The notes under the pieces: model-generated
Seen by the model: only the letters and a program-made list of their open reading frames with translations
Told to the model about the DNA's origin: nothing
Database searches by the model: none
Shown: positions 922 to 34,421 of the stretch, in pieces
Position numbering within the stretch: position 1 is the first letter of the stretch
How the letters are laid out: each line of letters starts with the position of its first letter
Source: an uncultured bacterium
GTDB taxonomy: Bacteria > Poribacteria > WGA-4E > PCPOR2b
Direction of reading: 5' to 3'
Assembly: GCA_964577695.1 (NCBI GenBank)
Contig: CAZOAL010000014.1
Span: forward strand, 49,250 to 113,249
Length of the DNA: 64,000 bases
Program-made: the position numbers and the translations under genes

Positions 922-1215
922 TTAAGCGACACGATGAAGTTCTCCTTGTTCCTCAAGGTATTTGGTAAAATCATGTCCCCAATCCAAATCGACGAGATCT
1001 ACGGAGTGCTCCAAGGTGCAAAGGAGCTCCCCCAAAAGCCCGAAAAAGGACACGCCGGAGGGACATCCTCGGATGGCAAGATCCAGATCTGAATCTGCTT
1101 TTGCTTTTCCATTAGCGACCGAGCCGAAGATATAAATCTCCCCACAGCCAGCCTCTTTCAGAATTTTAACGGCTAAATGGGGAGCGTTTTGAAAAGATTC
1201 GGGAATTTGAAGCAT
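922..1215 (-). CDS. Nucleotidyltransferase-domain protein (Pol-beta/MNT superfamily, MntA-like antitoxin type)
   Basis: Carries the motif FGSVANGKAKADSDLDLAI (GS-x-G...DxD) typical of minimal nucleotidyltransferases. 97 aa. Confidence 0.7.
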   Translation of the reverse strand: MLQIPESFQNAPHLAVKILKEAGCGEIYIFGSVANGKAKADSDLDLAIRGCPSGVSFFGLLGELLCTLEHSVDLVDLDWGHDFTKYLEEQGELHRVA

Positions 1216-1265
1216 ATTCTACCTCTGTCTTCGCGCAACATGTATCACATTTCACGCGCCACATT

Positions 1266-2447
1266 TCACTTTGGCATTCCATCAACCCGCGTCCGGATGG
1301 CTTCCCAATCCTCGGGCGGAATCCTCAAGAACGCTTCAACGACCTGCGGGTCAAAATCTGTTCCACTACACTGCACAAATTCTTCACGAATTCTGAGATA
1401 CGGCCAGGGTTCTTTGTAGGGACGGCGAGAGGCAAGCGCATCAAGGACATCGGCAGCCATAAATATACGCGCACCAAGCGGAATCTCCTCCCCCATCAAA
1501 CCCATCGGATAACCTTTACCATTGTATTTTTCGTGATGGTGCCACACGATCAGGGCCGCGTTTCCAATGAAAGGGATGTTTTTGAGAACCTCGTAGCCAT
1601 AGGTTGTATGCTTCTGCATTTCCCTATATTCTTCATCTGTTAATCGACCCGGCTTGAGTAAAATGGTATCTGAAACACCGATTTTTCCAATGTCATGCAA
1701 CGTTGCACCTAATTGGAGTGTCCGGATGTGATTGGGGTCATTGATTCCCATCTCCGCGGCAATTCGGAGGGCAAACTGGACGACCCGAATGGAGTGATTT
1801 TCCGTTTCTTGGTCTCGCAATTCAAGCAAAGAGGTCATTGCAAGAAGCGTCTGTCGATAGCTGTCTTCGAGGTCTTCATACAATTGGGCGTTTTCGATTG
1901 CAATCGCTGCATGATTTGCCAACGAGCTGAGTAGTTCTTCATCGTCTATGGAGAAGGACAACCCTTCCAGTTGGTTTAATACCTGGATGACCCCTGTCAC
2001 ACTCCCGCGCATATTTTTCATCGGAACGGTCAGGAGACTCCGTGTGCGGTAGCCTGTGGAACGATCGTGGGAAGGATCGAATCGCTCATCCTGATAGGCA
2101 TCGGGTATATTAATCGTTTTCCCGGTCATAGCAACCATGCCGGCAAGCCCTTTTCCAACGGGGACTCTCAGCCGCCGACCTGAAATACCAGTCGCCACCT
2201 TTGTCCACAACTCATTCTTCTTTTTGTCAAACGTCCAGATGCTGCTGCGCTCCGCATCAACTACCTTCAGCGCTTCAACGGCAATGCGGTCTAAGAGGGT
2301 ATCCAGGTCTGTTTCAGACCCTAACACGCGACCTGCCTCAATCACCAGGCGCTGTTTGATAAAAAACTTCAGGATTTTATCCGAGTTCATCAGCCTATCT
2401 TCATCTTCCCTATATTGACGTAAACTGGAAGCATTATTGTTTTCCAT
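1266..2447 (-). CDS. GAF-domain / HD-GYP-domain protein (putative c-di-GMP phosphodiesterase)
   Basis: Has the LHDIGKIGV and HHHEKYNGKGYP motifs (HD...GYP). The N-terminal part is GAF-like. Confidence 0.85.
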   Translation of the reverse strand: MENNNASSLRQYREDEDRLMNSDKILKFFIKQRLVIEAGRVLGSETDLDTLLDRIAVEALKVVDAERSSIWTFDKKKNELWTKVATGISGRRLRVPVGKGLAGMVAMTGKTINIPDAYQDERFDPSHDRSTGYRTRSLLTVPMKNMRGSVTGVIQVLNQLEGLSFSIDDEELLSSLANHAAIAIENAQLYEDLEDSYRQTLLAMTSLLELRDQETENHSIRVVQFALRIAAEMGINDPNHIRTLQLGATLHDIGKIGVSDTILLKPGRLTDEEYREMQKHTTYGYEVLKNIPFIGNAALIVWHHHEKYNGKGYPMGLMGEEIPLGARIFMAADVLDALASRRPYKEPWPYLRIREEFVQCSGTDFDPQVVEAFLRIPPEDWEAIRTRVDGMPK

Positions 2448-2593
2448 AGTTTTTGACTTCCCCTTTTGCTTATTCAGTCAAAAATTGGATTGACTGTACC
2501 ATGCTGGCGTAAAAGTATAATACTCGCGCGATTACGATTTGACTTCAACCTTAATAAAGTGAGTTATTGCGCTGTCTTCGGTTTTGTACAGAA

Positions 2594-3403
2594 CTAAATC
2601 TTCTCAATTGCCTCCGCCGGTAGCCAGCCTGCATTCTCATCTGGCAGATAAATTTTGACCCAATCACCGCGTTCCTCTTTCAGTTGAATCTTGGTCCCTT
2701 GATGCAGGGGGCGGGTGATTTCTACAGCGTCCGGATGGGGTTCACTCCCCACCGCCACTTCGTTCGCAGTGACGATTGCATAAGGAACGTTGAGCTCACG
2801 AATTTTTAAGCCGAGAAGCAATAGGAAAAACACCCAGGTCAAGCAACCGATTAACGCAACAGAACGACATATCTGTTTGAGCCGACGTTTCCGGCTGAAT
2901 AACAGACCGATGCCACTCACTGCCGCCATCCAGTAAGGGACAAGCCCTAGCCAAACGATTTCATCAGGGTGTAAAGCACCATATAGAAGCGAGAATCCAG
3001 AGGGTGCTTTCACGAGGTCAAATTGGTCGGGATTCAGTGCCCTGGCGATTTTGAGATTGAGAACGGTCTCTTGGTCCCTTGGCATTAGCCGCTTCGCCCG
3101 TTCGTAGTTCACAATTGCCTTCCCCCGTTCCCCCAAACGAAAATAGGCATTTCCAAGGTTATAATACACGTTGCCATTGTGAATCGAAGCCGCGATCTGT
3201 TCGTACTTTTCGATTGCCTGTTGATACTGCCCACGTTCATAGTCCGCATTGGCACTTCGATAGCTTGCTTCTAAAATCGATTGGGATTGGGCGTGGGTGG
3301 ATTGTTCCCAGCAGGCAAAACAAAGCAAGCAAACGTGAAACGTGAAACGTGAAACGTGAAACGTGAAATGAATCCATTCCTTCCTTTCCTTCCATCCTTC
3401 CAT
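2594..3403 (-). CDS. TPR plus C-terminal bacterial SH3 protein (BatE-like)
   Basis: TPR repeats (YYNLGNAYFRLGERGKAIVNYERA), two transmembrane segments, and an SH3b-like C-terminus (GDWVKIYLPDENAGWLPAEAIEKI). The N-terminus is encoded by heptamer repeats, so the start is uncertain. Confidence 0.6.
   Translation of the reverse strand: MEGWKERKEWIHFTFHVSRFTFHVCLLCFACWEQSTHAQSQSILEASYRSANADYERGQYQQAIEKYEQIAASIHNGNVYYNLGNAYFRLGERGKAIVNYERAKRLMPRDQETVLNLKIARALNPDQFDLVKAPSGFSLLYGALHPDEIVWLGLVPYWMAAVSGIGLLFSRKRRLKQICRSVALIGCLTWVFFLLLLGLKIRELNVPYAIVTANEVAVGSEPHPDAVEITRPLHQGTKIQLKEERGDWVKIYLPDENAGWLPAEAIEKI
3334..3368. repeat. Tandem heptamer (CGTGAAA) x5
   Basis: Five exact copies of cgtgaaa, read directly from the sequence. 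Confidence 0.95.
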
Positions 3404-3520
3404 TCTTCAATCCTTCCATTCTTCAATCATTTGCTCATTCGCTCATTTGCCCATTTGCCCATTCGCCCATTCGCTTCCTTCCCTTCCTTCCATCCTTCCA
3501 TCCTTCCCTTTCTTCCACTC
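3376..3520. repeat. Block of tandem octamers (CCTTCCAT/TTCTTCAA, then CATTTGCC/CATTCGCC, then CCTTCCAT again)
   Basis: Read directly: atccttccattcttcaatccttccattcttca, then catttgcccatttgcccattcgcccattcgc, then ccttccatccttccatccttcc. Confidence 0.9.
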
Positions 3521-5552
3521 ACTCACTTCTTATTTCATCGTCTTGTCTCCGCTCTTTCTCGATTTCGTGAATGGCGGCTTTCGCATCATTGAGGGCACTT
3601 GCCATATCGGTGGGACTCATCGCAGCCGGCGCAAATCGTGCATAGTCACATTGTATCAACACCTCAACAAACTGCGTGGTTGAGGCTTCAGAAATACCGC
3701 TCTCCTTGCACTGTTGGCGCACCAGTTCTGGATTGAGCCCCGTTGGTGAAATCGTGAAGATGTCTCCGATGTACTGATACAACCCACTGGCGAGGGCCGC
3801 GAAGAAGGCTGCCGACCCACTTTCAATCTTTTGCTCCGCATGTTCGATGGCTCTCAGGGCGTTCCTCGTAGCGTTCTGTCCTCGCAGTTGCACGAGGTTG
3901 CGCTTCGCTCGCTGTCGCTGATAGACATAAGCGGCCAAAAGAGCGATAACGGGCAACAGTTGCATCCCCCAAAAAGAAGGGCGCTGATAGAAATAAACGC
4001 CTCCATCCGCTAATTTGACCGTAGCGGGCTTGATATATTGAATGTCTTGTTTCAACACCCGTATATCCGACTGCGTAGGCCGAACTGTCGTTGTTCCAGT
4101 AGACCCACCCGGAAGTACATTGATGGGAATAGGGACGGTACGAGCAATCTGATAGCTCTCCTTTTGGGGGTCGAAGTACGGGTACTCAATCGCAGGAATC
4201 GTCCAATTCCCCGCCTTCGATGGAATAATGACATACGCATACGTGCGGCTCCCCTGAATGTTCGATTCCGCTTCGTCCATAGCGTCTGTAATCTTGGGTG
4301 AGTATACGGTCATATTCGGGAGCGGCGGGGTGGCTGGCTCTGCCAATGTTTCGATGTTGCCCTTCCCGGATACTTGAAGCCGCAAGGTGAACCCATTCCC
4401 CGCTTCGATGGTCCCCCGCTCCACTCCGGTAACCCGTGAGTCTTCGACTTGCGCATCGATTTGATATTGACCAACGGCACCCGTGAATTGAGCGGGTTTC
4501 CCGGTTTGGGGGAGTGGACGGACGTTAATCTCGATTGCATCCGTGACTAAAACTTTCGGTGTATCGCTACGGCTATAACCGGCAAGCGCTGAGAGGGCAA
4601 GTTGAGCGGGTTCAATCGTTGTCGCCCCCGCAGTCAGCGGGAACAGCGCAACCTTGATTTCTTCAACTTGATAGGTTGTCCCATCAATCACTTCAGGGTG
4701 CCGCCGTTTCCTCGGCAGTTCTTTTTTCCAAAAGTATGTCAGCGAAGGCGGTGTGTACTTTGGGGGCTCAAGGCTTGGAATTCGCGCACTATAGAGATAA
4801 CGAAACGTGTATGTGATTTGTTCATTGACATAAGGTCTGGGGTTATCGACAAAAGCCTCAATTTTCTGAGTGACGCCGTTAAACACATCTGTAAAAGAAT
4901 TTTGTGCCCCCCCTCGCTCCCGCGCGGGCAGGGAAGTCAGTTTCTGAGATTTGGGTACAACTTCGATGAACATAGAAGCTGTCTCGTAAGTTTGGCTACC
5001 ATAAGGAACTCGAATTTTCGGGAGCGTAAACTGACCGACCTTCTGCGCTATCAGGAGGTACGACCATGTGATTGAGACGGAAATTTGAGTCCCGATCAGG
5101 TGGTATTGACTCGACGAGCCAGCATAAGAGATGCTGAATTCTTGCAATGGCTCAAGTTTTGGTGGCTGAATATCTCTGAGCTGTGTACGACCAGAGATTG
5201 TCACCTGTAAGGTTGCGCTTTCGCCAAGACGGATGGTCTTCGGGCTGACCTCTGCTGATACAGTGATATCTTGACTATAAACAGCACCGGCGTATAGGTA
5301 AACAGAGATTACGGAAAGCCAAAAAGCGTGAAACGTGAAACGTGAAACGTGAAACAGATGCAAGATGCAAGTGAATCCTGAATCTTGAATCCTGAATCCT
5401 GTATCCTGTATCCGCCGGGTTGAGCCTGTCGAAACCTTGCATCCTGAATCCTGAATCCTGAATCCTTGTTTTGCACTACCAATCCTTCTCGGAGCGTTTG
5501 CGTCTTGCCAATCGCTTTCGTAATAGTTTTTTCTGGATGTCCTTCTCGTCAT
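3519..5552 (-). CDS. BatD-like (oxygen-tolerance family) large secreted/membrane protein; the real start is probably near 5363 (TTG)
   Basis: Sits between the BatC-like and BatE-like TPR genes. About 600 aa of beta-rich repeats, a C-terminal transmembrane segment (WGMQLLPVIALLAAYVYQ), and a helical tail. The N-terminal 60 aa of the longest ORF are translated repeats (GFRIQDSG..., FHVSRFTFH) and overlap the upstream gene. Confidence 0.55.
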   Translation of the reverse strand: MTRRTSRKNYYESDWQDANAPRRIGSAKQGFRIQDSGCKVSTGSTRRIQDTGFRIQDSGFTCILHLFHVSRFTFHAFWLSVISVYLYAGAVYSQDITVSAEVSPKTIRLGESATLQVTISGRTQLRDIQPPKLEPLQEFSISYAGSSSQYHLIGTQISVSITWSYLLIAQKVGQFTLPKIRVPYGSQTYETASMFIEVVPKSQKLTSLPARERGGAQNSFTDVFNGVTQKIEAFVDNPRPYVNEQITYTFRYLYSARIPSLEPPKYTPPSLTYFWKKELPRKRRHPEVIDGTTYQVEEIKVALFPLTAGATTIEPAQLALSALAGYSRSDTPKVLVTDAIEINVRPLPQTGKPAQFTGAVGQYQIDAQVEDSRVTGVERGTIEAGNGFTLRLQVSGKGNIETLAEPATPPLPNMTVYSPKITDAMDEAESNIQGSRTYAYVIIPSKAGNWTIPAIEYPYFDPQKESYQIARTVPIPINVLPGGSTGTTTVRPTQSDIRVLKQDIQYIKPATVKLADGGVYFYQRPSFWGMQLLPVIALLAAYVYQRQRAKRNLVQLRGQNATRNALRAIEHAEQKIESGSAAFFAALASGLYQYIGDIFTISPTGLNPELVRQQCKESGISEASTTQFVEVLIQCDYARFAPAAMSPTDMASALNDAKAAIHEIEKERRQDDEIRSE
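5327..5466. repeat. Composite heptamer block: (CGTGAAA)x4, (GATGCAA)x2, (CTGAATC/TTGAATC/CTGTATC)n
   Basis: Read directly from the sequence. It lies between the BatC-like stop (5476) and the probable BatD-like start. Confidence 0.9.
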
Positions 5553-25126: not shown

Positions 25127-26881
25127 TCATTGAGCCGCGCTCCCTTCAATGACTTCGATGACACGATTCACCTCGAGGTCGGCGTACCGATCGCTCCGTC
25201 CAGATGGCCAAATCACCTCTAGCGATTCAACCCTTTTGCTTTGCCCTAACCCGAAAGTGAGCACCGTTTCACTCTGAGAGCAATAGCTACTTCCCGTCCG
25301 AACTATCCGTCGTTGCGTCACGCCCCCCGCTTTGATGATCATTTTTGCACCGATGCCGTCTCGATTACTCCCCCCCCCGCCCGCGGGGGGGACCAAAGGG
25401 GAAATGCCCCTGACCCCCCCGTGGACGGGGGGGGTGCCAATCGTTTTGACACGCAGATAGTTGTTCCGATTCCCGCCATCATTTCGTAATAGCCACGCCT
25501 TCCCATAATCTGGATGGACGCCGTTGTTGGAGACCAGCACATCGACATCCCCATCGTTATCATAGTCACCGTAGGCTGCGCCGCGTCCGACGCCCAGCTT
25601 CCCAAGCCCAACCTGGGAAGCGATCTCCTCAAAGGTGCCGTCATGCCGATTCCAAAAGAGTGACGGCAGTTGTGTGTAGCTCACATTCTGCTGATATCGA
25701 CCCACATCCGGCTCAATGTGGCCGTTCACGCAGAACAGGTCCAGGTAGCCGTCCAGATCGAAATCGAAGAAGAACAGACCGAATGTCAACGTGAGCAGGC
25801 TTGCGTTTCCAATCTTCACTCGCGTTGCCAGATCGGAGAAGTAATCCCCCGGGCGGGCATAGAAAAACGCTGTCATTTCGTTGCTGAAATTCCCGATTGA
25901 GATTGCAAGCCCGCCATCGTTATGCACATCCGCCGCGTCGATTCCCATGCCGCCTCGTGCGCTTCCGCTCTCATCGAACGCAACGCCCATCAGGATGGCT
26001 TCATCAGTGAATGTACCATCACCGTTGTTGTGATACAGGAAATTCGGCTCGGTATCATTCGCAACGGCGAGGTCCAGCCAACCGTCGTCGTCATAGTCCA
26101 GCAACGTCACGCCGAGCGACTTGCCGTTGGGGTTGTAGACGCCGGACGATGTGGTTACATCTTCAAAAGTCCCATTCCCACGGTTATGGTAGAGGCGACA
26201 GGATTGGCCCGGATAAACGCTCGGTGTGCAGTAAGATGGGTGCCGGTGATCGACTGTGCAGGGGATATCCGTTTCGATCGTCCATTGCACATAGTTGCAC
26301 ACGAATAAATCCAGCCAGCCGTCTCGATCATAATCGAAAAACGCGGCGCTCGTAGACCAGCTTGGGTCCCCAACCTTTGCTATCTCGGTCACATCGGTGA
26401 ACGTGCCATCCCCGTTGTTGCGGAAAAGTCGATTAGGACCCAGATTGGTGAAGTAGAGGTCGGCATCTCCGTCGTTGTCATAATCGGCGATGGCGACGCC
26501 CATGCCGTACATCGACACGTCTAACTTTGCCGCACGGGTGACATCGGAAAACCTGCCATCCCCCAGATTGCGATAGAGTTTGGGCGTCTGATTGGACTTG
26601 CCATCACTCCAACTTTTCCCATTGACGAGGAGGATGTCCAAATTTCCATCGTTGTCGAAGTCAAGGAAGGCGCAACCTGCCCCCATCGTTTCAGGCATAT
26701 ATCGCTTCCCGGCCGCTCCGGTGAAATGTCTGAAATCAATCCCCGCCTGATTGGTGACATCAACGAACTTCACAGCGGGGGGGGTAGCATAACTGGTTCC
26801 GATGCAGAGGGTGAGCGCGAAACATAAAACGTGAAACGTGAGGGGTGAAACGTGAAACGTAAAACGTGAGGGGTGAGGCAT
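25127..26881 (-). CDS. CRTAC1-family secreted protein (FG-GAP/VCBS repeats plus ASPIC/UnbV C-terminal domain)
   Basis: Repeated D-x-D-x-DG-x-x-D motifs (DFDNDGNLDIL, DYDNDGDADLY, DYDRDGWLDLF, DYDDDGWLDLA, DFDLDGYLDLF, DYDNDGDVDVL) and an UnbV-like tail (NRDGIGAKMIIK...RTGSSYCSQSE). Confidence 0.8.
   Translation of the reverse strand: MPHPSRFTFHVSPLTFHVLCFALTLCIGTSYATPPAVKFVDVTNQAGIDFRHFTGAAGKRYMPETMGAGCAFLDFDNDGNLDILLVNGKSWSDGKSNQTPKLYRNLGDGRFSDVTRAAKLDVSMYGMGVAIADYDNDGDADLYFTNLGPNRLFRNNGDGTFTDVTEIAKVGDPSWSTSAAFFDYDRDGWLDLFVCNYVQWTIETDIPCTVDHRHPSYCTPSVYPGQSCRLYHNRGNGTFEDVTTSSGVYNPNGKSLGVTLLDYDDDGWLDLAVANDTEPNFLYHNNGDGTFTDEAILMGVAFDESGSARGGMGIDAADVHNDGGLAISIGNFSNEMTAFFYARPGDYFSDLATRVKIGNASLLTLTFGLFFFDFDLDGYLDLFCVNGHIEPDVGRYQQNVSYTQLPSLFWNRHDGTFEEIASQVGLGKLGVGRGAAYGDYDNDGDVDVLVSNNGVHPDYGKAWLLRNDGGNRNNYLRVKTIGTPPVHGGVRGISPLVPPAGGGGSNRDGIGAKMIIKAGGVTQRRIVRTGSSYCSQSETVLTFGLGQSKRVESLEVIWPSGRSDRYADLEVNRVIEVIEGSAAQ
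26818..26878. repeat. Heptamer repeat block (GTGAAAC/GTAAAAC/GTGAGGG) inside the 5' end of the CRTAC1 ORF
   Basis: cgaaacataaaacgtgaaacgtgaggggtgaaacgtgaaacgtaaaacgtgaggggtgagg. Confidence 0.9.
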
Positions 26882-26962
26882 GAGAATTGGTAATTTCCTT
26901 CCTATTCAGGACTTGAGATTCTTCGCTTCACTGTTCCTTGCAAAAATCCATCACCAGACATG

Positions 26963-27017
26963 AAAAAGCCGGACAGCCACAAAATCTGCATCTTTGGCAA
27001 TCCGGCTTTTTCTTTTT
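26963..27017. terminator. Possible bidirectional intrinsic terminator
   Basis: aaaaaGCCGGAcaGCC...GGCaaTCCGGCtttttcttttt: the stem is flanked by an A-run and a T-run. It lies downstream of the tandem retropepsin genes. Confidence 0.4.
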
Positions 27018-27084
27018 CAAAATGATTTCCACAGTCCTTAAGGGTTAGCGGGTGGCCAGGAGAAACAGCGTTTCTTTGCACGAC

Positions 27085-27516
27085 TTAGCACACGCCCACA
27101 GCATAATATTGTTCCTCAATCCATTCATTTCCATGCGCAGGATTGTAAATCAGACCTCGTTTCACATCAAGACACAAATCCAGATGTTCCATCACCAGAT
27201 GTCCGACCAGCACAGGCGCATCATCGGGTAAATCCGTGACCTTCATAGAATCTGCTCGCCCTAAAATCGTGAATTCCACTTCTGAATAAATGGTTTTGTC
27301 GACCTCCCCATTGGCTGTCTTCGATCTGGTTTTGCCAACCGGCGTGAGTCCCAACTGTTGGATGAGCGAACGGGGCAATGACAGCCGTGATGCACCGGTG
27401 TCGACTAACGCCTCTTTCACGATGACTTGACGCACGCCTTCAGGTTTAATCACGCCATCTTCCGCCCGTATCATATCTTCTCGATTGACTAATTTGATTT
27501 CGGTTGTGTACCTCAT
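27085..27516 (-). CDS. Retropepsin-like (clan AA) aspartic protease, paralog A
   Basis: EALVDTGASRLSLPR (DTGA motif) in a 143-aa protein. About four-fifths identical by eye to the 34008 copy. Confidence 0.7.
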   Translation of the reverse strand: MRYTTEIKLVNREDMIRAEDGVIKPEGVRQVIVKEALVDTGASRLSLPRSLIQQLGLTPVGKTRSKTANGEVDKTIYSEVEFTILGRADSMKVTDLPDDAPVLVGHLVMEHLDLCLDVKRGLIYNPAHGNEWIEEQYYAVGVC

Positions 27517-27537
27517 TTATGGTCTCCTTTCTGTTTT

Positions 27538-27954
27538 TCAAAGTTGATTCTCAATCCATTCACCGTCATGCGCCGGATTGTAAATGAGACCGCGTTTAAT
27601 GTCCAGACACAAATCCAGAAGTTCCATCACAATATGGCCGACTAGCACGGGCACGTCATCGGGCAGGTCTGTGACTTCTAGTGCCCCTCTCCGTCCCAGA
27701 ACAGTGAACTCCACTGTTGAATATATCGTTCTTTCGACGACGCCGTTTGTGGTCCGCGACTTGGCTTTGCCAACCGGCGTTAAGCCCAACTGTTGAATGA
27801 GCAAACGGGGCAATGACAACCGCGATGCGCCCGTGTCAACGATCGCCTCTTTCACAATAACCTGACGTACTTCTTCAGGTTTGATTACACCATCCTCAAC
27901 TCGAATCATATCTTTCAGATTGACTAACTTGATTTCCGTGGTATGCTTCATCAT
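27538..27954 (-). CDS. Retropepsin-like (clan AA) aspartic protease, paralog B (tandem to A)
   Basis: EAIVDTGASRLSLPR. The start is trimmed to MMKHTTEIKLVN. The upstream RBS context (aaacagaGGGGAGacc) parallels that of copy A. Confidence 0.7.
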   Translation of the reverse strand: MMKHTTEIKLVNLKDMIRVEDGVIKPEEVRQVIVKEAIVDTGASRLSLPRLLIQQLGLTPVGKAKSRTTNGVVERTIYSTVEFTVLGRRGALEVTDLPDDVPVLVGHIVMELLDLCLDIKRGLIYNPAHDGEWIENQL

Positions 27955-28100
27955 GGTCTCCCCTCTGTTTTTCAAAGCTGAGATTCTATCCGTTACTACC
28001 CTTCCCCTTAATCTCTTTCCTAAATAGGATAGCACTATCCACGGCTTCTGTCAATCTCAATTTCTGTTGCATCTGTCTGGAGATGTGGTATAATACAAAA

Positions 28101-28186
28101 TTCAAGATTCACTTGCCTCCTGCATCTTGTATCCTGCATCATGAATCCTGCATCTTGTATCTTGAATCCTGTATCTTGAATCTTGT
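28101..28186. repeat. Heptamer block (TGCATCT/TGTATCC/TGAATCC variants)
   Basis: ttcaagattcacttgcctcctgcatcttgtatcctgcatcatgaatcctgcatcttgtatcttgaatcctgtatcttgaatcttg. Confidence 0.9.
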
Positions 28187-28189
28187 TCT

Positions 28190-29185
28190 ATGACCAGACG
28201 ATTTCTCATCTCCAGGGTACTATTCCCGACAGCGATTGCCGTTGTCGTGAGCTATTTCCTACTGTCGCAGATTTCCATCCGAAGCATCCCGGAGACGCTC
28301 GGACGTTTGCCACTCCGGTCTCTGGTAGTCGGATTTGGTTTATATTGCCTGTTTGTATGGACGAAGGCACTGCGCTTCCGTGAATTGCTCCGGCTGGAGC
28401 GACCCATCCGGCAACTGCTCCCCATCCTCGCACTGCACACGTTTTGGGGGAATATCCTGCCAATGCGAGGCGGGGATGTCTCTTATATCTACTTGATGAA
28501 GCGTCGTGAACAGGTGGATGGGGCCAAAAGCGTCGCGTCGCTCATGCTGGCAAGCCTTATCGATCTCGCCCTGCTGATTGCGCTGATGGTCGGCACAGGC
28601 TGGCTGCTCCGCTCTCACCTCGAAGGGCAATTGTCATACATCGTCCTTTACCTCATGCCAATCCTGATCGGCATTTTGCTGATTGGCCTGATGACGATGG
28701 CGAGCCTTGCCCCCCAAGCCTGCATGGGGCTTGCGGAAAGTTGTGTGCGTCCTTTGCTGCGTTGTAACCAACCGCTCGTTTTATGGTTGACGCACAAATG
28801 CCTTGAAGTGGTCCGTGAGCTCACCCATCTTCGTTTGGATCGACGATTCTTCACCGTGTGGGGATATTCAATCGTCAGCTTGGGTATGCGCTTTGGATTT
28901 CAGTGTTATCTGGTGCGCGAGATGGGAGTTGCCGTTTCAGTGGTGAGTTTGCTCTTCGCTTTGGCATTTACCAACCTCTTTAATCTGCTACCGATTCAAA
29001 GCGTCGGGAACTTTGGGACGATTGAAGCCCCTTTCGCGTGGGCTTTAATGCGTTTCAGTACGCCGAAAGAGGTTGCCCTGGTTTCGGGGTTTAGCTTGCA
29101 TCTGATTATTTTGCTTTACTGTTTACCACTGGGAGTTTACGGATTTCTCAGGAAGAAGCAGGTGCGTGGGAACGAAATGAAATGA
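28190..29185 (+). CDS. UPF0104 / lysylphosphatidylglycerol-synthase-TM-region-like (flippase-like) membrane protein
   Basis: About 8 transmembrane segments and the typical ...R.GDV.Y.. region (LPMRGGDVSYIYLMKR). Paralogous in architecture to 49086..50126. Confidence 0.6.
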   Translation: MTRRFLISRVLFPTAIAVVVSYFLLSQISIRSIPETLGRLPLRSLVVGFGLYCLFVWTKALRFRELLRLERPIRQLLPILALHTFWGNILPMRGGDVSYIYLMKRREQVDGAKSVASLMLASLIDLALLIALMVGTGWLLRSHLEGQLSYIVLYLMPILIGILLIGLMTMASLAPQACMGLAESCVRPLLRCNQPLVLWLTHKCLEVVRELTHLRLDRRFFTVWGYSIVSLGMRFGFQCYLVREMGVAVSVVSLLFALAFTNLFNLLPIQSVGNFGTIEAPFAWALMRFSTPKEVALVSGFSLHLIILLYCLPLGVYGFLRKKQVRGNEMK

Positions 29186-29195
29186 AGTCTATTTT

Positions 29196-29228
29196 AGACT
29201 TCCGAAGTCTCACAGACTTCGGAAGTCT
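29196..29228. terminator. AGACTTCCGAAGTCT-family double hairpin between convergent genes
   Basis: agacttccgaagtct, cacag, acttcggaagtct. It lies between the stop at 29185 (+) and the stop at 29257 (-). Confidence 0.5.
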
Positions 29229-29256
29229 GGAGGACTGCCTATACAAGTTCATCCAC

Positions 29257-30330
29257 TTAACTTTTCCGTGCCTCCATCAGGCAGCGGATATACTGTTCCG
29301 AAACCTCAAGGTCTTTGATTGCATCGGCTGCCGGAGAGATCGTCGGGCTACCCGTTTTCAGGCACTGCACAAAGTGTCGGGCTTGCTCAAGGAACGCCCA
29401 CCGTTGCGGGATAAGGGGGCGGATTTCTTGCGGGTTGTTGGCATCGCCAAATCCAGAGCTGTTATAGATGACCACATCGCCGGCGCGTTGCCGCGCCATC
29501 GGGGCGGGGAGTTGCAGGTCGATTCGCCCTTTCTCAAAGCAGACGCGGTAAGACTCCTCCCACCGATTCCGCATCCCACACGCTGCCATTTCCAGCGTAC
29601 ACGGCACACCGCTATCAGAGATCGCGACGAGAAGCTGGGAGCGCGGATCGACGTAAGTGACCCGATAATCTTCGCCAATGAGATAGCGCAACAGGTTGAC
29701 CTGATGGATATAGAAGTTGATGAAACCGTTATACTGCCCGCCCAGAGCACCCATCCACTCCGGCGGTGATTCTCCGGTTTGCCCTTCATAAGCGGTGGGC
29801 GAATCGCCCTTATTGATGGGACACTCATGCTCATAGATCCAATCCCCGGCTGGCATTGCAATCCGCACGTAAGTCATCCCCCCCATTTCGCCGGATGCCT
29901 TCCAATCCTGCACCGTCTTGTGAACAAGCTTCGACGCCGGATCGTGACGCTTCATGTAGCCCACCTGATAGAGTATCTCTTTCTCTTTCGCCTGCCCAAC
30001 CAGCTTCCGCGCTGAATCGGATCGGATGCAGATCGGCTTTTCCGTCGCCACCGGCTTTCCAGCAGCGAGGATGTCGGCGACCAGGGCACGATACAGGTGA
30101 AATCCCATAATCGCAACAACGCCATCGATTTCCGCATGCTCCAGCATCTCGTGGTGATTCGGATACACTTCGCGGATACCGTAGCGTTGGGCAACCGCTT
30201 GTGCAGTTTTCGCTCTCCCTTCCGCCAGCGCGACCAATTCGCAATCGTCAATCGTCGCGTAGTTTGCAATATGTGCCAGTTGTCCCATATAACCACATCC
30301 AACAAAACCGAGACGTACCTTTTCACTCAT
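29257..30330 (-). CDS. Gfo/Idh/MocA-family oxidoreductase
   Basis: MSEKVRLGFVGCGYMGQLAHI follows AAGGAG. The longer listed ORF (to 30438) is translated repeat. Confidence 0.85.
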   Translation of the reverse strand: MSEKVRLGFVGCGYMGQLAHIANYATIDDCELVALAEGRAKTAQAVAQRYGIREVYPNHHEMLEHAEIDGVVAIMGFHLYRALVADILAAGKPVATEKPICIRSDSARKLVGQAKEKEILYQVGYMKRHDPASKLVHKTVQDWKASGEMGGMTYVRIAMPAGDWIYEHECPINKGDSPTAYEGQTGESPPEWMGALGGQYNGFINFYIHQVNLLRYLIGEDYRVTYVDPRSQLLVAISDSGVPCTLEMAACGMRNRWEESYRVCFEKGRIDLQLPAPMARQRAGDVVIYNSSGFGDANNPQEIRPLIPQRWAFLEQARHFVQCLKTGSPTISPAADAIKDLEVSEQYIRCLMEARKS

Positions 30331-30351
30331 AATAATGATTCTCCTTATAAT

Positions 30352-30420
30352 GTGAAACGTGAAACGTGAAACGTGAAGCGTGAAACGTAATGCGTAATGC
30401 GTAAAACGTGATACGTGATT
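30352..30420. repeat. Heptamer block (GTGAAAC x4, GTAATGC x2, GTAAAAC, GTGATAC)
   Basis: gtgaaacgtgaaacgtgaaacgtgaagcgtgaaacgtaatgcgtaatgcgtaaaacgtgatacgtgatt. Confidence 0.95.
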
Positions 30421-30430
30421 GGGAAGCGGG

Positions 30431-31126
30431 CTATTCATCTTTGGTGGCGAATGTAATGTCGATCTTTATGGTATTCCCCACTTCATCCTTAGCCAGACCT
30501 TCGATGATATAGGTTGCATGATGAACAAGCCCTTTTCCTTCCGGCGGCTTAATGGTCACGGAATCTTCTCCCCAACTCGGCATCCAACCGAGTGCATCTT
30601 CGCCTTTAGGCCTGATGTCAATCGTGCCTTGGCGGACACATATATTAAACCGAATCGTGATACCTTCGGCATTCAACAACTCTGGGGCAACGTCCTCATC
30701 TCCATTTTTCACACTCGCCCATACAATGCTCGGCGGTCCGATGTCCACATACCCCTTCACCACACGCAAGGTAATTTTAGCACCGGGGCCGCTAGAACCG
30801 TCCCTGTTTGTCCATGCGATAGTAAATGTTGCTGATGTCCCAATGGCAAAGAAACATTTCGTTTGACCACCGATGAGGTATAAATCGTGGCTGTCCAAAA
30901 GTATAGTTGCCCCCTCAACATAGACATCGTGTCCATTGACGGTAACAGACAGCGGTGGCTGATCAAAGTTTAACTTCAATTCCCCATAGAAAGGTATTTC
31001 GCCCCCATCTGGAGGCTCACTGCCGATGAAGTTCACTATTTCCCCATCGCCTCCACAACTACAAACTATCAGGCAGATTAGACTTAAAAACACAATGCAA
31101 AGCGTCTTTTCGTTCTTCAGTCTCAC
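30431..31126 (-). CDS. Putative lipoprotein, beta-rich (Ig-like), hypothetical
   Basis: Signal plus lipobox (CIVFLSLICLIVCSCGG). Confidence 0.5.
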   Translation of the reverse strand: MRLKNEKTLCIVFLSLICLIVCSCGGDGEIVNFIGSEPPDGGEIPFYGELKLNFDQPPLSVTVNGHDVYVEGATILLDSHDLYLIGGQTKCFFAIGTSATFTIAWTNRDGSSGPGAKITLRVVKGYVDIGPPSIVWASVKNGDEDVAPELLNAEGITIRFNICVRQGTIDIRPKGEDALGWMPSWGEDSVTIKPPEGKGLVHHATYIIEGLAKDEVGNTIKIDITFATKDE

Positions 31127-31204
31127 CTTCTTTCCAGCCCCTTTTTACCGCCCTTCTATCAACGTTTCTTTCTATTTTCCATTCCTTCCAATCTGCCTGT
31201 CTAA

Positions 31205-31639
31205 CTACCCAATCTCCACCAACTCCAGCGTGATGCCATCCGGGTCAAGGAAATACACCGATTTCACAATGGCCCCACCTTCGCGCCCTGTGACAACCGG
31301 TTCAGACTTAAACGGAACCCCTTTTCGCCGAAGCTCACGATAGGCTGCGTCCATGTCATCAACGATGAAGGCGATATGAGCGCTCCCTGTATCGCATGTC
31401 TGGGTATCAAGCGGCTTCCCAATTGGCGACAGGTATTGAATCAACTCAATGACGTCCCCATAAGCACTCAGATGGACAATACGCAACATGGCGTCAGGAA
31501 TTTGTGTTACACTATGGTCTGGAGATTCCTGGACGATAACCTCTGAGTGGACACGCATACCAAGGCACCCTGTATAGAAAGCCAGGGATGTGTCCATGTC
31601 ACGCACCGTGAAACTGAAATGGTGGAGGCCTTTGAGCAT
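31205..31639 (-). CDS. VOC-family (glyoxalase/bleomycin-resistance/dioxygenase) protein
   Basis: LHHFSFTVRDMDTSLAFYTGCLGM...GSAHIAFIVDDMD...FLDPDGITLELVE. Confidence 0.8.
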   Translation of the reverse strand: MLKGLHHFSFTVRDMDTSLAFYTGCLGMRVHSEVIVQESPDHSVTQIPDAMLRIVHLSAYGDVIELIQYLSPIGKPLDTQTCDTGSAHIAFIVDDMDAAYRELRRKGVPFKSEPVVTGREGGAIVKSVYFLDPDGITLELVEIG

Positions 31640-31856
31640 CGAAGAAAAATCCTTTCATTTCAAATCTTCAGAAGGTTCCGAACCTTCCGAAGGTTAAAAC
31701 CGTCGTCGTTCTCAAATTCTAACCGAAAAGCGGAAGATTGTCAATTCTGTTGTTAAGTTTCTGGGCACCAATTTTCGCAGGTTAGTTCAAACGGGAAGAA
31801 GAAACCGGGGGCAGTAAGAAACCGAGTTTTTTGGTTATAGCCGGTGATGTTCAGAC

Positions 31857-31939
31857 CTAACCCCCCGGCCCCCTTCCCTCTAGGGAAGGGGAGTCTTCTC
31901 CCCTCTCCGTGTCGGGGAGGGGCGGGGGGAGGGGTTTAG
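31857..31939. repeat. GC-rich compound palindromic element (intergenic copy)
   Basis: ctaaCCCCCCGGCCCCCTTCCCTCTAGGGAAGGGGAG...TCCCCTCTCCgtgtcGGGGAGGGGCGGGGGGAGGGGtttag. Related palindromes lie inside three genes (14782, 25371, 63245). Confidence 0.7.
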
Positions 31940-32175
31940 AAAACCCTCATAACTGTCAGGAGACGCCGGCTCTGGCCGCCTGACTGATGCACAATATTCG
32001 TGAAAGGTTATTTAGCGCACCATAAGTAAAGTTACGTTTCAGAAGGGGTTTCTGTCTTTAGAACCTAAGACGGAGTTGTAACCCTTCTGGTTGACGTGCT
32101 GAGGTACAACCCCAGTTGCTTTGAATCCCGTGAAACGGGGCAGAACAGAATGTGAAGTTTGTTTTTGAAAATTAG

Positions 32176-32355
32176 TTATACCTTTCCACAGAATTTCTTC
32201 CTGTAGGTCGGGTTTCCAAACCCGACGCTCTGGGTGTCGAGATTGGAATCTCGACTGACTTGATGGAGGAGTTTCGCTCCGTCATCGTCGATGGGGCTGA
32301 CCGTCTGGCGGCCGCGAAGGCGAAAAAAAAGATTGACAACGTGACCCAATTATGA
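32176..32355 (+). pseudogene. Probable cas1 remnant (short open frame containing a Cas1-like DLMEEFR-x-V-I-V-D motif)
   Basis: My own translation gives ...TEFLPVGRVSKPDALGVEIGISTDLMEEFRSVIVDGADRLAAAKAKKKIDNVTQL*. DLMEEFRSVIVD (32257-32292) resembles the conserved Cas1 segment, recalled as ...SLALDLMEEFRPvvvDr.... Two 20-nt hairpins (32207-32226, 32236-32255) sit inside the frame. Confidence 0.35.
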
Positions 32356-32597
32356 GATAATCACTCCATCCCAAACGACGGGAGGCACCATCGCCACACG
32401 GAAGCGAAAATCGGCTTCAAACCCAGATGTCACGCGGGATGCAGCCCTCTTTATTGAAAAATTCTCGTTTGGGTCAGTCGTGATGCGGGTTTGAGCCATT
32501 TTGGGGTTCATTTCCCCCCCAAAACAGGGGATGGCAAATCACTCGTTTGGAAATGGCAATTTTAGCCCGCACCACGACTGCCTCCGGGATGGGTACT

Positions 32598-32685
32598 CTC
32601 GAAACACTAGACCCGGCTAATAGGGGATTGAAACAAGATCCAGCTTGCCGCGCGATTTACGCCAGCGCCCGACTCGAAACACTAG
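32598..32685 (+). CRISPR. Degenerate CRISPR remnant: one 37-nt repeat, a 38-nt spacer-like segment, and the first 13 nt of a second repeat
   Basis: CTCGAAACACTAGACCCGGCTAATAGGGGATTGAAAC (32598-32634) ends in the ATTGAAAC tag typical of Cas6-processed repeats. ctcgaaacactag recurs at 32673-32685 and then diverges. It lies about 240 nt downstream of the cas1-like remnant. Confidence 0.3.
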
Positions 32686-32907
32686 CTCCATGTGAGTGCT
32701 ATTGATGCCGTCTTGCGGGATGCCTAGTGGGGCGGTTTTGAACACGTCACCACGCTGGTCAGCAACGTCACTCCCGATGAGCGGGATGACCCCACCGATT
32801 GGAATATCATAAAGGGGCTCAAGGATTTGGTAGAGAAGACGGAGGCGGATGACCTCGTGGTGCTCTACTTCTCCGGTCACGGTTGGCAGAGCGGAGATGA
32901 AGCTTAT

Positions 32908-33018
32908 ACCGATTCCGAATTGAAATATGACATCCCCGTAGTGGCGACTTCAGTCGCTTAAAGGGCGATTGAAATCGCCACTACCGTTTCATGATGGAAT
33001 TGAATCTGGAATTGGTAT
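32908..33018. mobile_element. MITE family B inserted in the caspase gene (TIR ATACCRATTCC...)
   Basis: ataccgattccgaattgaa...gtagtggcga // tcgccactac...ttgaatctggaattggtat. The 111-nt segment keeps the reading frame but carries a TAA. Confidence 0.5.
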
Positions 33019-33100
33019 TACCTCCTGCCGCAGAATTTCGACATTGAATTTCCAGAACGCACCGGCCTCCGAAGCAGCGATCTGAACCAGTGGATTAGCA

Positions 33101-33250
33101 CTACAATGTCACGTTTCCTGTAGCCCAAGATTCTATCTTGGTTCCTGGCAATCATCCGTTTCATTTTCCAACTTAGGTTGTCTTTTAGAAACCTAAGACA
33201 ACGTTAAAGTTGGGCTACAAGCGTATCCTCATCCGAACGTGACATTGTAG
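33101..33250. mobile_element. MITE family A, variant copy, inserted in the caspase gene (TIR CTACAATGTCACGTT)
   Basis: Ends ctacaatgtcacgtt and aacgtgacattgtag. Flanked by ATTAGC on both sides (TSD). Removing the element plus one TSD restores ...NQWISQMKARKVVTILDSCHSGG. Confidence 0.65.
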
Positions 33251-33922
33251 AATTAGCCAGATGAAAGCCAGAAAGGTCGTAACAATCTTGGACTCGTGCC
33301 ACTCCGGCGGTATCGAAGTTCGACCGAAAGGGAAGGCGGGCGGGTCAAAGCTGACGCTCAACAAACAGTATCTGGAAGCGTTCAAGACATCTGCTGGCAA
33401 GGTCGTCCTCCACTCCCGCGACGCGGAGGAGAAGTCGTGGGAGATGCCTGACGGCAGTCAAGGGGTGTTCAGCAAGTACCTCGTCGATGGCTTGCGCGGC
33501 GCAGCCGATGCCCAAGGCGACAACGACGAGGTGATTACGATTCGTGAGGCTTACGATTACGCCTACAAACAAGTTATGACGTATATGAAGCAGGACGGTC
33601 GTGGTCAGCAAACGCCGGTTTGGAGTGGCAAGGAGAGCGGTAACATCCCTCTGACAATCAATCCACAACGCAAGGCGGAGCGCCAACTGGAAAAACAGAT
33701 TGACAGGGTTTACGCGCTTATCACGGATACCGTTGTAACAGAGCGCGCAATCTCCCTGCTCAAGAAGCGAGCGAATCAAGAAGCGCTCACGCAAAACGAG
33801 CAACGCCTGATTAACTACCTCGATAATCTCCTCGCCGGACAAATCACCCTTGAAACCTATCTCGGCGCAGACCAGCGATTCGGGCCGTGAACAGAAGTAA
33901 CTTTAAAAAATCAACTTTACCT

Positions 33923-34007: not shown

Positions 34008-34421
34008 ATGAGATACACAACGGAAATCAAATTGGTCAATCAAGAAGATGTAACTTTAGCTGAGAGAGGTGTTATCAAACTTGACGATGTCCGTCAGGTA
34101 GTCGTCAAAGAGGCGTTAGTTGACACAGGCACATCACGGCTGTCAGTCCCCAGATTTCTCATTCAACAGTTGGGGTTAAAACCTGTTGGCAAAGCCAAGT
34201 CAATGACCGCAAACGGAGTCGTAGAACGAACGATTTATTCGGTAGTAGACTTCACGGTCTTAGGGCGGACAGATTCTATGAGGGTGACAGATCTATCCGA
34301 TGATGCGCCTGTGCTGGTCGGACATCTGGTGATGGAACATCTGGATTTGTGTCTTGATGTGAAGCGAGGTCTGATTTACAACCCTGCGCACGGAAATGAA
34401 TGGATTGAGAAGCAGTTGTGA
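34008..34421 (+). CDS. Retropepsin-like (clan AA) aspartic protease, paralog C
   Basis: EALVDTGTSRLSVPR. 137 aa. Collinear with paralogs A and B. Confidence 0.7.
   Translation: MRYTTEIKLVNQEDVTLAERGVIKLDDVRQVVVKEALVDTGTSRLSVPRFLIQQLGLKPVGKAKSMTANGVVERTIYSVVDFTVLGRTDSMRVTDLSDDAPVLVGHLVMEHLDLCLDVKRGLIYNPAHGNEWIEKQL

Follow-up and report, generated by a model that had tools for sequence, protein, structure and literature searches.

Features of the locus

The subject of this report is the segment 32257-32685 of a 64,000-nucleotide (nt) stretch of contig CAZOAL010000014.1 (contig C14 of assembly G000), from an uncultured member of Candidatus Poribacteria. The whole stretch is called the window hereafter. 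The segment holds parts of a CRISPR-Cas locus (short palindromic repeats, clustered and spaced at regular intervals, and their associated genes): 13 codons of cas1, the whole leader, a single repeat with its spacer, and the first 13 nt of another repeat. A sister relic is found on contig C12 of the same assembly. The genome is a metagenome-assembled one of short-read style, with 141 contigs and 4.98% contamination.

The segment belongs to a stretch (31640-33260) that the initial annotation, made from the sequence alone, had described as devoid of intact genes, with a decayed CRISPR-Cas piece proposed at 31640-32685. Both statements are borne out. Three frames of 31640-33260 were scanned against Pfam, and a BLAST search of 31600-33300 against the whole genome resolves the parts that belong neither to the relic nor to a caspase gene into copies of dispersed repeats; the CRISPR part is homologous to the C12 relic. 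The 1.6 kb without genes can be explained base by base (Table 1) as (i) debris of miniature inverted-repeat transposable elements (MITEs), (ii) the CRISPR relic and (iii) a multiply broken WD40-caspase gene. A glyoxalase gene lies on one side (31205-31639, minus strand, Pfam E 7e-23) and an aspartyl-protease-like gene starts at 34008 on the other, no intact gene being seen between them; the window neighbours also include mutS and other housekeeping genes.

Table 1. Features of the relic and of its flanks in the window (relic first, flanking features after it)
Feature	Position	Strand	Evidence and remarks
cas1 remnant, 13 codons (DLMEEFRSVIVDG)	32257-32295	+	97.4% identical to C12:95492-95530; Pfam Cas1 positions ~231-244 of 283
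Internal deletion junction	32295-32296	+	277 bp missing vs C12: last ~85 cas1 codons, stop, first nucleotides beyond
Complete CRISPR leader (302 nt)	32296-32597	+	Aligned block by block with eight Poribacteria leaders, each flanked by a full-length cas1 and an array
Leader promoter TTGACA, 17 nt, TG-extended GATAAT	32333-32361	+	Promoter scan; 11/12 consensus; predicted strong sigma-70-type
Leader box 1 (CTCGTTTGG)	32464-32472	+	Direct repeat family D3; invariant columns in leader alignments
Leader box 2 (CTCGTTTGG)	32542-32550	+	Second direct copy of box 1
CRISPR repeat 1, 37 nt, 3' end ATTGAAAC	32598-32634	+	Identical copies at C12:96111 and C12:96185
Spacer, 38 nt, unique	32635-32672	+	Single occurrence in own genome
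First 13 nt of repeat 2	32673-32685	+	Direct repeat family D4; cut by caspase junction
Dispersed-repeat debris	31640-32176	.	Palindromic hairpin 31658-31701; G-rich MITE ~31850-31940 (dozens of copies); 152-nt repeat 32027-32178
Glyoxalase promoter-like site	31744-31716	-	Promoter scan
Truncated MITE, TATACCTTTCCAC terminal inverted repeats	32177-~32265	+	Aligned with full copies on C50, C10, C61, C26
WD40-caspase pseudogene fragment 1	32692-32907	+	Residues 489-560 of 796-aa orthologue; C14 model 42-97; in-frame TAG 32725-32727
111-nt MITE at TA target site	32908-33018	.	Collinear gap vs orthologue; other genomic copies
WD40-caspase pseudogene fragment 2	33019-33099	+	Residues 560-586 of orthologue
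152-nt MITE, CTACAATGTCACGTT terminal inverted repeats	33100-33251	.	ATTAGC duplication; inverted repeat I2; 97% copies on C18, C56; 6-nt orthologue overlap
WD40-caspase pseudogene fragment 3	33252-33890	+	Residues 585-796; DSCHSGG cysteine; C14 model 114-224; 71% identity

The cas1 remnant and its counterpart on C12

The motif DLMEEFRSVIVD, taken by the initial annotation for a piece of Cas1 in a frame of about 60 codons, lies at 32257-32292 (plus strand) inside an open frame of 59 codons from stop to stop (32176-32355, plus strand). The first 27 codons of this frame are the truncated MITE with both of the 20-nt hairpins that had been noticed there (32209-32228 and 32237-32256). The Pfam Cas1 profile (PF01867, model length 283, cut-off 22.3 bits) does give a signal on the window, at model positions 231-244, with E 0.072 and 12.7 bits, i.e., below the threshold of the family. 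The stub is also matched by the Cas1 of a relative in tblastn (E 1.3e-4).

As the fragment alone is sub-threshold, its identity rests on the C12 paralogue, through which it can be named a genuine Cas1 remnant. On C12 a frame of 103 codons scores as Cas1 (Pfam E 5.8e-12, 45.8 bits, model positions 227-281 of 283) and is 75% identical to residues 229-330 of a Poribacteria Cas1 of 330 residues, from a 90% cluster named Candidatus Poribacteria bacterium; with full-length Cas1 proteins of other Poribacteria it shares 70-76% identity. BLAST aligns window 32257-32295 with C12:95492-95530 (39 nt) and window 32295-32635 with C12:95808-96148 (98.5%, 341 nt), with E 5e-169. The C12 relic spans G000:C12:95071-96290; past its Cas1 frame come about 320 nt of non-coding DNA (mostly leader), a repeat, a spacer, a second repeat, a second spacer and a degenerate third repeat. 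When the C12 fragment is searched in 176 genomes of the phylum, 47 matches are obtained at 61-76% identity, most of them in open frames of about 330-460 codons.

The C12 copy holds about four more cas1 codons on the left (SLNS, vs. ALAS in a relative), therefore the window copy is nested in it. The window element is probably a shorter, further-deleted copy of the C12 relic and not what remains of the primary locus. With 13 of about 330 codons left, and everything before position ~231 and after ~244 of the model missing, a functional Cas1 is impossible; the catalytic residues of Cas1 lie upstream of the DLMEEFR helix. A tblastn search of 31000-33300 with the 19 proteins of a relative's locus (E 20) returns no cas remnant other than this stub, and the only cas1 sequences detected in the assembly are a type I-B gene and the C12 stub.

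Degraded cas1 genes are also seen in other genomes. In G108:C1:5140854-5144147 (L012) a frameshifted cas1 pseudogene stands beside an array of at least 12 repeats, and several other Poribacteria have cas1 fragments with stops next to apparently intact arrays. Erosion of cas1 beside arrays seems to be recurrent in the phylum. A truncation hot spot of cas1 shared across the phylum was considered and rejected: the short frame of G108 is a frameshifted pseudogene with different lesions.

The leader

What separates the Cas1 motif from the repeat, approximately 300 nt, is no junk but an intact, conserved CRISPR leader that includes its promoter. In eight relatives a leader comes after the cas1 stop and precedes an array of 37-nt repeats ending GGGAATTGAAAC. 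The leaders compared (those of the window, L007, L008 and L012-L017) have the same architecture: a promoter placed about 240 nt ahead of repeat 1, with two CGCGTTTGG boxes and a stem.

The window promoter aligns with a TTGACA/TATACT pair found in all the relatives' leaders, with an A-tract preceding it. The boxes are two direct copies about 78 nt apart, and their consensus CGCGTTTGG is present in all related leaders; the alignments also contain a repeat-proximal block. RNAalifold gives a long-range stem of 5 bp, GCGGG (~32487-32491) with CCCGC (32566-32570), of weak folding energy, for which compensatory changes on both sides (CG/UA) are found in several relatives. Boxes and stem are candidate sites for an integration host factor or for the docking of Cas1-Cas2. 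Such a definition of a conserved Poribacteria type III leader could guide studies of spacer integration in an uncultivated phylum.

All five mismatches between the window and C12 leaders are localized at 32306-32365, and from 32366 on the two copies are identical. A clustering of all five within the first 70 of the 341 aligned positions has a probability of about 4e-4. The pattern may come from constraint, gene conversion, mutation near the deletion junction or collapse in the assembly.

Repeat, spacer and related arrays

The 37-nt unit that had been placed about 240 nt downstream of the frame begins 243 nt past its end. It is a genuine CRISPR repeat: the same unit forms a three-repeat array on C12, where its two identical copies are 74 nt apart, and its 3' 25 nt recur in a six-repeat array beside genes for a reverse transcriptase (RT)-PrimPol protein, Cas1 and Cas2. 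The 38-nt unique segment and the 13 nt of the same unit that follow it are also present as described. With a single full repeat, its spacer and only 13 nt of another repeat, the window represents the minimum of what can be called an array (repeats of 23-50 nt with spacers of similar length). The hairpin of repeat 1 is weak (3 bp), against 5 bp in the repeats of the relatives.

A comparison of the 37-nt unit with the assembly and with metagenomes had been proposed as a check. It gives the two further copies on C12 and, for the 3' 25 nt of the repeat, seven metagenome contigs; the array next to cas genes (L039) shares these 25 nt. L039 has six such repeats next to genes for CARF, Cas6, RT-PrimPol, Cas1 and Cas2 proteins, and the identity of its Cas1 with the C12 fragment is only 40%. 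L037 carries a single repeat with a spacer and 10 nt of a further copy. The exact repeat was not found, with up to three mismatches, in 28 genomes of the same family, nor its 3' 20-mer in a collection of 185,579 species. Rfam (E up to 1) on the window and C12 loci yields neither CRISPR-DR nor group II intron families, only chance microRNA hits.

Two contigs of a groundwater metagenome (L038 and L035) together reproduce the C12 relic with the same truncated cas1; outside the array a single mismatch occurs in about 1,100 nt (99.9% identity). Both the distal spacer and the degenerate last repeat agree with those of C12, but the spacer next to the leader has nothing in common with its C12 counterpart. 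This difference may come from two acquisitions or, equally well, from two deletions.

The window spacer has no second match in its own genome, no match with up to three mismatches in the 176 Poribacteria genomes and no exact match in IMG/VR. The idea of a spacer directed against cas genes is unsupported, as no match at up to three mismatches exists in the 176 genomes.

Two other observations concern repeats. On contig L034 (Ga0209515_10000325) a mini-array of two repeats (770-890), both identical to that of the window over 37/37 nt, occurs in DNA with no other nucleotide similarity to the genome; beside it (1046-4225) are a regulator pair (helix-turn-helix protein plus M78 peptidase) and an operon of the cyclic-oligonucleotide-based antiphage signalling system (CBASS) with a SAVED-domain protein and a CD-NTase. 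At G000:C26:77570-78240 a long tandem array of a CT-rich unit of about 58 nt with a GC-rich palindrome is broken by an assembly gap (N run). It has no spacers and was rejected as a CRISPR.

Ancestry and type of the system

In the relatives the order is: cas genes, cas1, a leader of about 300-400 nt, or 350-420 nt in the eight relatives compared, and an array of 37-nt repeats ending GGGAATTGAAAC; past the orthologous cas1 these arrays count 9-15 or more related repeats. The one relative's locus that was annotated fully (G163) encodes Csx7-type RAMPs (repeat-associated mysterious proteins), Csx19, further RAMPs, two CARF proteins, Cas6, Cas2, a group-II-intron-like RT and Cas1. The system is type III-D-like, and its adaptation module is RT-assisted. 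No effector of the Cas10, Csx7, Csx10 or Csx19 type is found at window 31000-33300 or around the C12 relic. The type III-D-like assignment thus concerns ancestry only, the effectors being present just in the relative's locus.

What is common to the window and to these loci is (i) a Cas1 C-terminus 75% identical to that of the G163 kind of locus, whose Cas1 is type I-D/cyanobacterial-like and RT-associated; (ii) a leader with promoter, two CGCGTTTGG boxes and long-range stem; (iii) a 37-nt repeat with a hairpin and the ATTGAAAC 3' end. The differences are that the window keeps 13 of about 330 cas1 codons and 1.35 repeats, that cas2, RT, cas6, RAMP and cas10 genes are gone, that the 5' half of the repeat has diverged and that its hairpin is weaker.

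Remaining immunity in the genome

The relic had been proposed to document the loss of adaptive immunity. This does not hold, for a complete type I-B locus on C4 and a type III-A-like effector operon with its array on C8 are present. C4 encodes a Cas6 of 289 residues, Cas8b1, Cas7, Cas5, Cas3, Cas4, Cas1b (454 bits) and Cas2, and its array has a 30-nt repeat in 15 copies; genes for Csm5 and for a TM1812-family protein are next to this set. C8 (G000:C8:161237-169788, L032) encodes Cas10/Csm1 (the match covers only model positions 190-753), Csm2, Csm3, Csm5 and Csm4, downstream of six 37-nt repeats whose repeat-proximal leader is 75% like that of the window. A Cas6 homologue of 327 residues on C8 has 33% identity to a relative's Cas6 in tblastn and no NCBIfam hit. 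The position of cas1 in the relatives is occupied on C8 by an IS200/IS605 transposase. The C8 repeat ends ACTGCGAC instead of the ATTGAAAC of the window, thus the two handles differ at 3 of 8 positions.

The genome remains CRISPR-competent through these other loci. The type III-associated adaptation module has disappeared from each of the three arrays that have a leader of this family. The organism did not give up adaptive immunity, as the type I-B adaptation module and the type III-A-like operon remain.

Junctions and the caspase pseudogene

At the left end about 27 nt are missing from the end of the truncated MITE, and the right terminal repeat is gone with them. The MITE consensus has CTCGACCTACTTGATGTCC and cas1 has GACCTGATGGAGGAG; in the window they are joined within ACTTGATG (about 8 nt, 32258-32265), and the junction was probably mediated by this microhomology. 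A metagenome contig of the Joint Genome Institute (JGI) matches window 25205-32464 at 99.97%; both the MITE/cas1 junction and the 277-bp deletion are in this part, and the contig ends inside the segment shared with C12. The left junction and the deletion are thereby confirmed.

At the right end repeat 2 stops at 32685 and caspase homology starts at 32692, therefore the breakpoint lies within 32686-32691. The initial annotation had seen here an abrupt switch into a caspase gene lacking its N-terminus. The truncation junction (32685/32692) is real; the loss, however, is not that of a short N-terminus, since about 488 codons with the WD40 propeller are gone. Two genomes of the same family have orthologues of 796-826 codons, whose C-terminal 308 residues match the window fragments at 68-71% identity. 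In the G001 orthologue the WD40 propeller covers residues 55-335 and Peptidase_C14 residues 459-713. Unlike bacterial WD40-caspase proteins, the window gene is a pseudogene without the WD40 propeller and without the first ~30 C14 residues; positions 1-41 of the C14 model are missing, and a TAG codon and two MITEs interrupt the frame. Both catalytic motifs, SGHG and DSCHSGG, are still there.

No copy of the WD40 half at about 70% identity exists elsewhere in the assembly. As these 488 codons have no such copy, a deletion is favoured and a reciprocal rearrangement (inversion or translocation) is disfavoured. The same deletion best explains the loss of the rest of the array. The neighbours of the G001 caspase orthologue are unrelated to those of the window. 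As for C12, the relic has glnE as a neighbour, and five relatives have this gene at a distance of megabases from cas1. With synteny failing on both the C12 side and the caspase side, the ancestral position cannot be assigned to either site.

Present state of the relic

Segment 32257-32685 is interpreted, with a probability of about 85%, as the inert remains of a type III-D-like CRISPR-Cas locus of Candidatus Poribacteria, taken from its array-proximal end. It is ordinary genomic debris of a known kind, since complete CRISPR-Cas systems persist elsewhere in the genome. We infer that it has no present function, because the cognate cas1 and cas2 are gone, effector genes are not nearby and the single spacer has no complete downstream repeat. 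Such a spacer is unlikely to give a proper CRISPR RNA (crRNA). The hairpin that precedes the ATTGAAAC handle is predicted with 3 bp only.

Beyond the homologies, coordinates and junctions, which are demonstrated, the events may have followed one another in this order: (i) the window piece would have arisen as a secondary, shortened copy of the larger C12 relic; (ii) a further 277 bp would have been lost; (iii) the left end would have been joined to the interior of a MITE through the microhomology of about 8 nt; (iv) the right end would have been joined by an illegitimate deletion to codon ~489 of the WD40-caspase gene; (v) this gene would then have been broken further by the TAG codon and by two MITE insertions. 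Read in this way, the window shows routes by which defence loci erode in MITE-rich Poribacteria, i.e., MITE microhomology junctions, internal deletions and duplication of fragments.

Several points weigh against an inert relic. First, the promoter and all conserved leader blocks are intact, and identity with C12 is 100% over the 270 nt that run from about the predicted transcription start through repeat 1, while the 70 nt upstream carry the five mismatches; this could mean constraint or gene conversion and not neutral decay, or just as well the collapse of a repeated segment in the assembly. Second, the genome encodes type III-A-like effectors and two Cas6 homologues that might use an RNA in trans. 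Third, arrays without cas1 may not be entirely static, given that two strains with 99.9% identity have different leader-proximal spacers in the C12 relic. Fourth, the right junction (32686-32691) is supported by this assembly only, and C12 and C14 might come from different cells.

The first three of these points bear on an improbable alternative, in which the window would carry a live orphan mini-array. Its promoter would be transcribed, a Cas6 from C8 or C4 would leave the 8-nt AUUGAAAC handle, and the 3' end would be trimmed as in type III; the crRNA would arm the type III-A-like complex of C8 or the type III proteins of C4, and new spacers could come in trans from the type I-B Cas1-Cas2-Cas4. 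The promoter, with 11/12 matches and the TG extension, is indeed aligned with those of the relatives, and the transcribed leader and repeat are identical to the C12 copy. On C8, an array with a 75%-similar leader and without cas1 precedes a full csm operon and a Cas6 homologue. A review states that some orphan arrays are functional (PMC8616872), and the C12 leader-proximal spacer differs between 99.9% identical strains, a difference that two independent repeat-repeat deletions explain equally. Against such activity stand the second repeat, cut after 13 nt, and the repeat hairpin of just 3 bp. The C8 handle differs at 3/8 positions, the C4 repeat belongs to a different 30-nt family, and no protospacer was found in the own genome, the phylum or IMG/VR.

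The broader proposal, and the one lead beyond ordinary decay, that leader-plus-array units without their own cas1 would still be live in this lineage (transcribed, used by type III-A-like effectors and supplied with spacers at the leader end by the heterologous type I-B Cas1-Cas2-Cas4), is improbable as well, and slightly more so. It leans on the leader-proximal spacer that differs in two strains whose C12 relics are otherwise 99.9% identical. If it were true, the window copy would be a duplicated single-guide expression unit and not junk.

It is very improbable that the structure is an artefact of assembly, i.e., that the approximately 380 nt shared with C12 made the assembler join or collapse paths so that one or both C14 junctions are absent from the cells. 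The short-read style of a genome in 141 contigs, the JGI contig that stops at 32464 inside the shared segment and the 270 nt of perfect identity with C12, which resemble a collapsed repeat, would fit such an error. The left MITE junction, the 277-bp deletion and the five mismatches are however reproduced at 99.97% in the JGI contig. As the right part starts inside repeat 1, this repeat family must precede it anyway, and either way both halves are CRISPR relics beside degraded genes.

Integration of a mini-array from a mobile element (virus or plasmid style, with a single spacer between one full and one truncated repeat) is hardly credible: such arrays are described for prokaryotic viruses (PMC8616872), and two metagenome contigs have one- or two-repeat arrays of the identical repeat with different upstream sequence, one of them by a CBASS operon, but in the window unit a fragment of cas1 and the full leader, of chromosomal type, are attached in collinear order with the relatives' loci, and flanking phage or plasmid genes are absent.

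Comparison with known orphan arrays

An inert relic of this kind can be compared with the orphan array of E. coli, where a short array with its leader also persists after the loss of the cognate cas genes while the genome keeps another CRISPR-Cas type. Here, in contrast, a piece of cas1 is kept, the array is cut inside a repeat and the relic exists in two copies. Moreover, the E. coli orphan spacers target I-F cas genes, whereas the window spacer has no anti-cas match in the 176 genomes. With the mini-CRISPR arrays of viruses and mobile elements (PMC8616872) the window shares one spacer between a complete and a truncated repeat. It differs from them in being chromosomal, with a cas1 fragment and a full leader attached, and in a truncation that the fusion with the caspase pseudogene explains.

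The value of these results is mostly that of a clear-up of the annotation.

Other observations

On C12, the glnE-like gene (glutamine synthetase adenylyltransferase; L001:2760-2835) contains an in-frame insert of about 60 nt, G/C-rich, palindromic and MITE-like, which leaves the frame open; residues 227-246 of its product have no counterpart in five relatives.

In the window, two paralogous genes for retropepsin-like aspartyl proteases (34008-34421 and 27115-27541) lie 7 kb apart with 81% nucleotide identity. At the second of these sites a tandem pair of such genes is called on the JGI contig.

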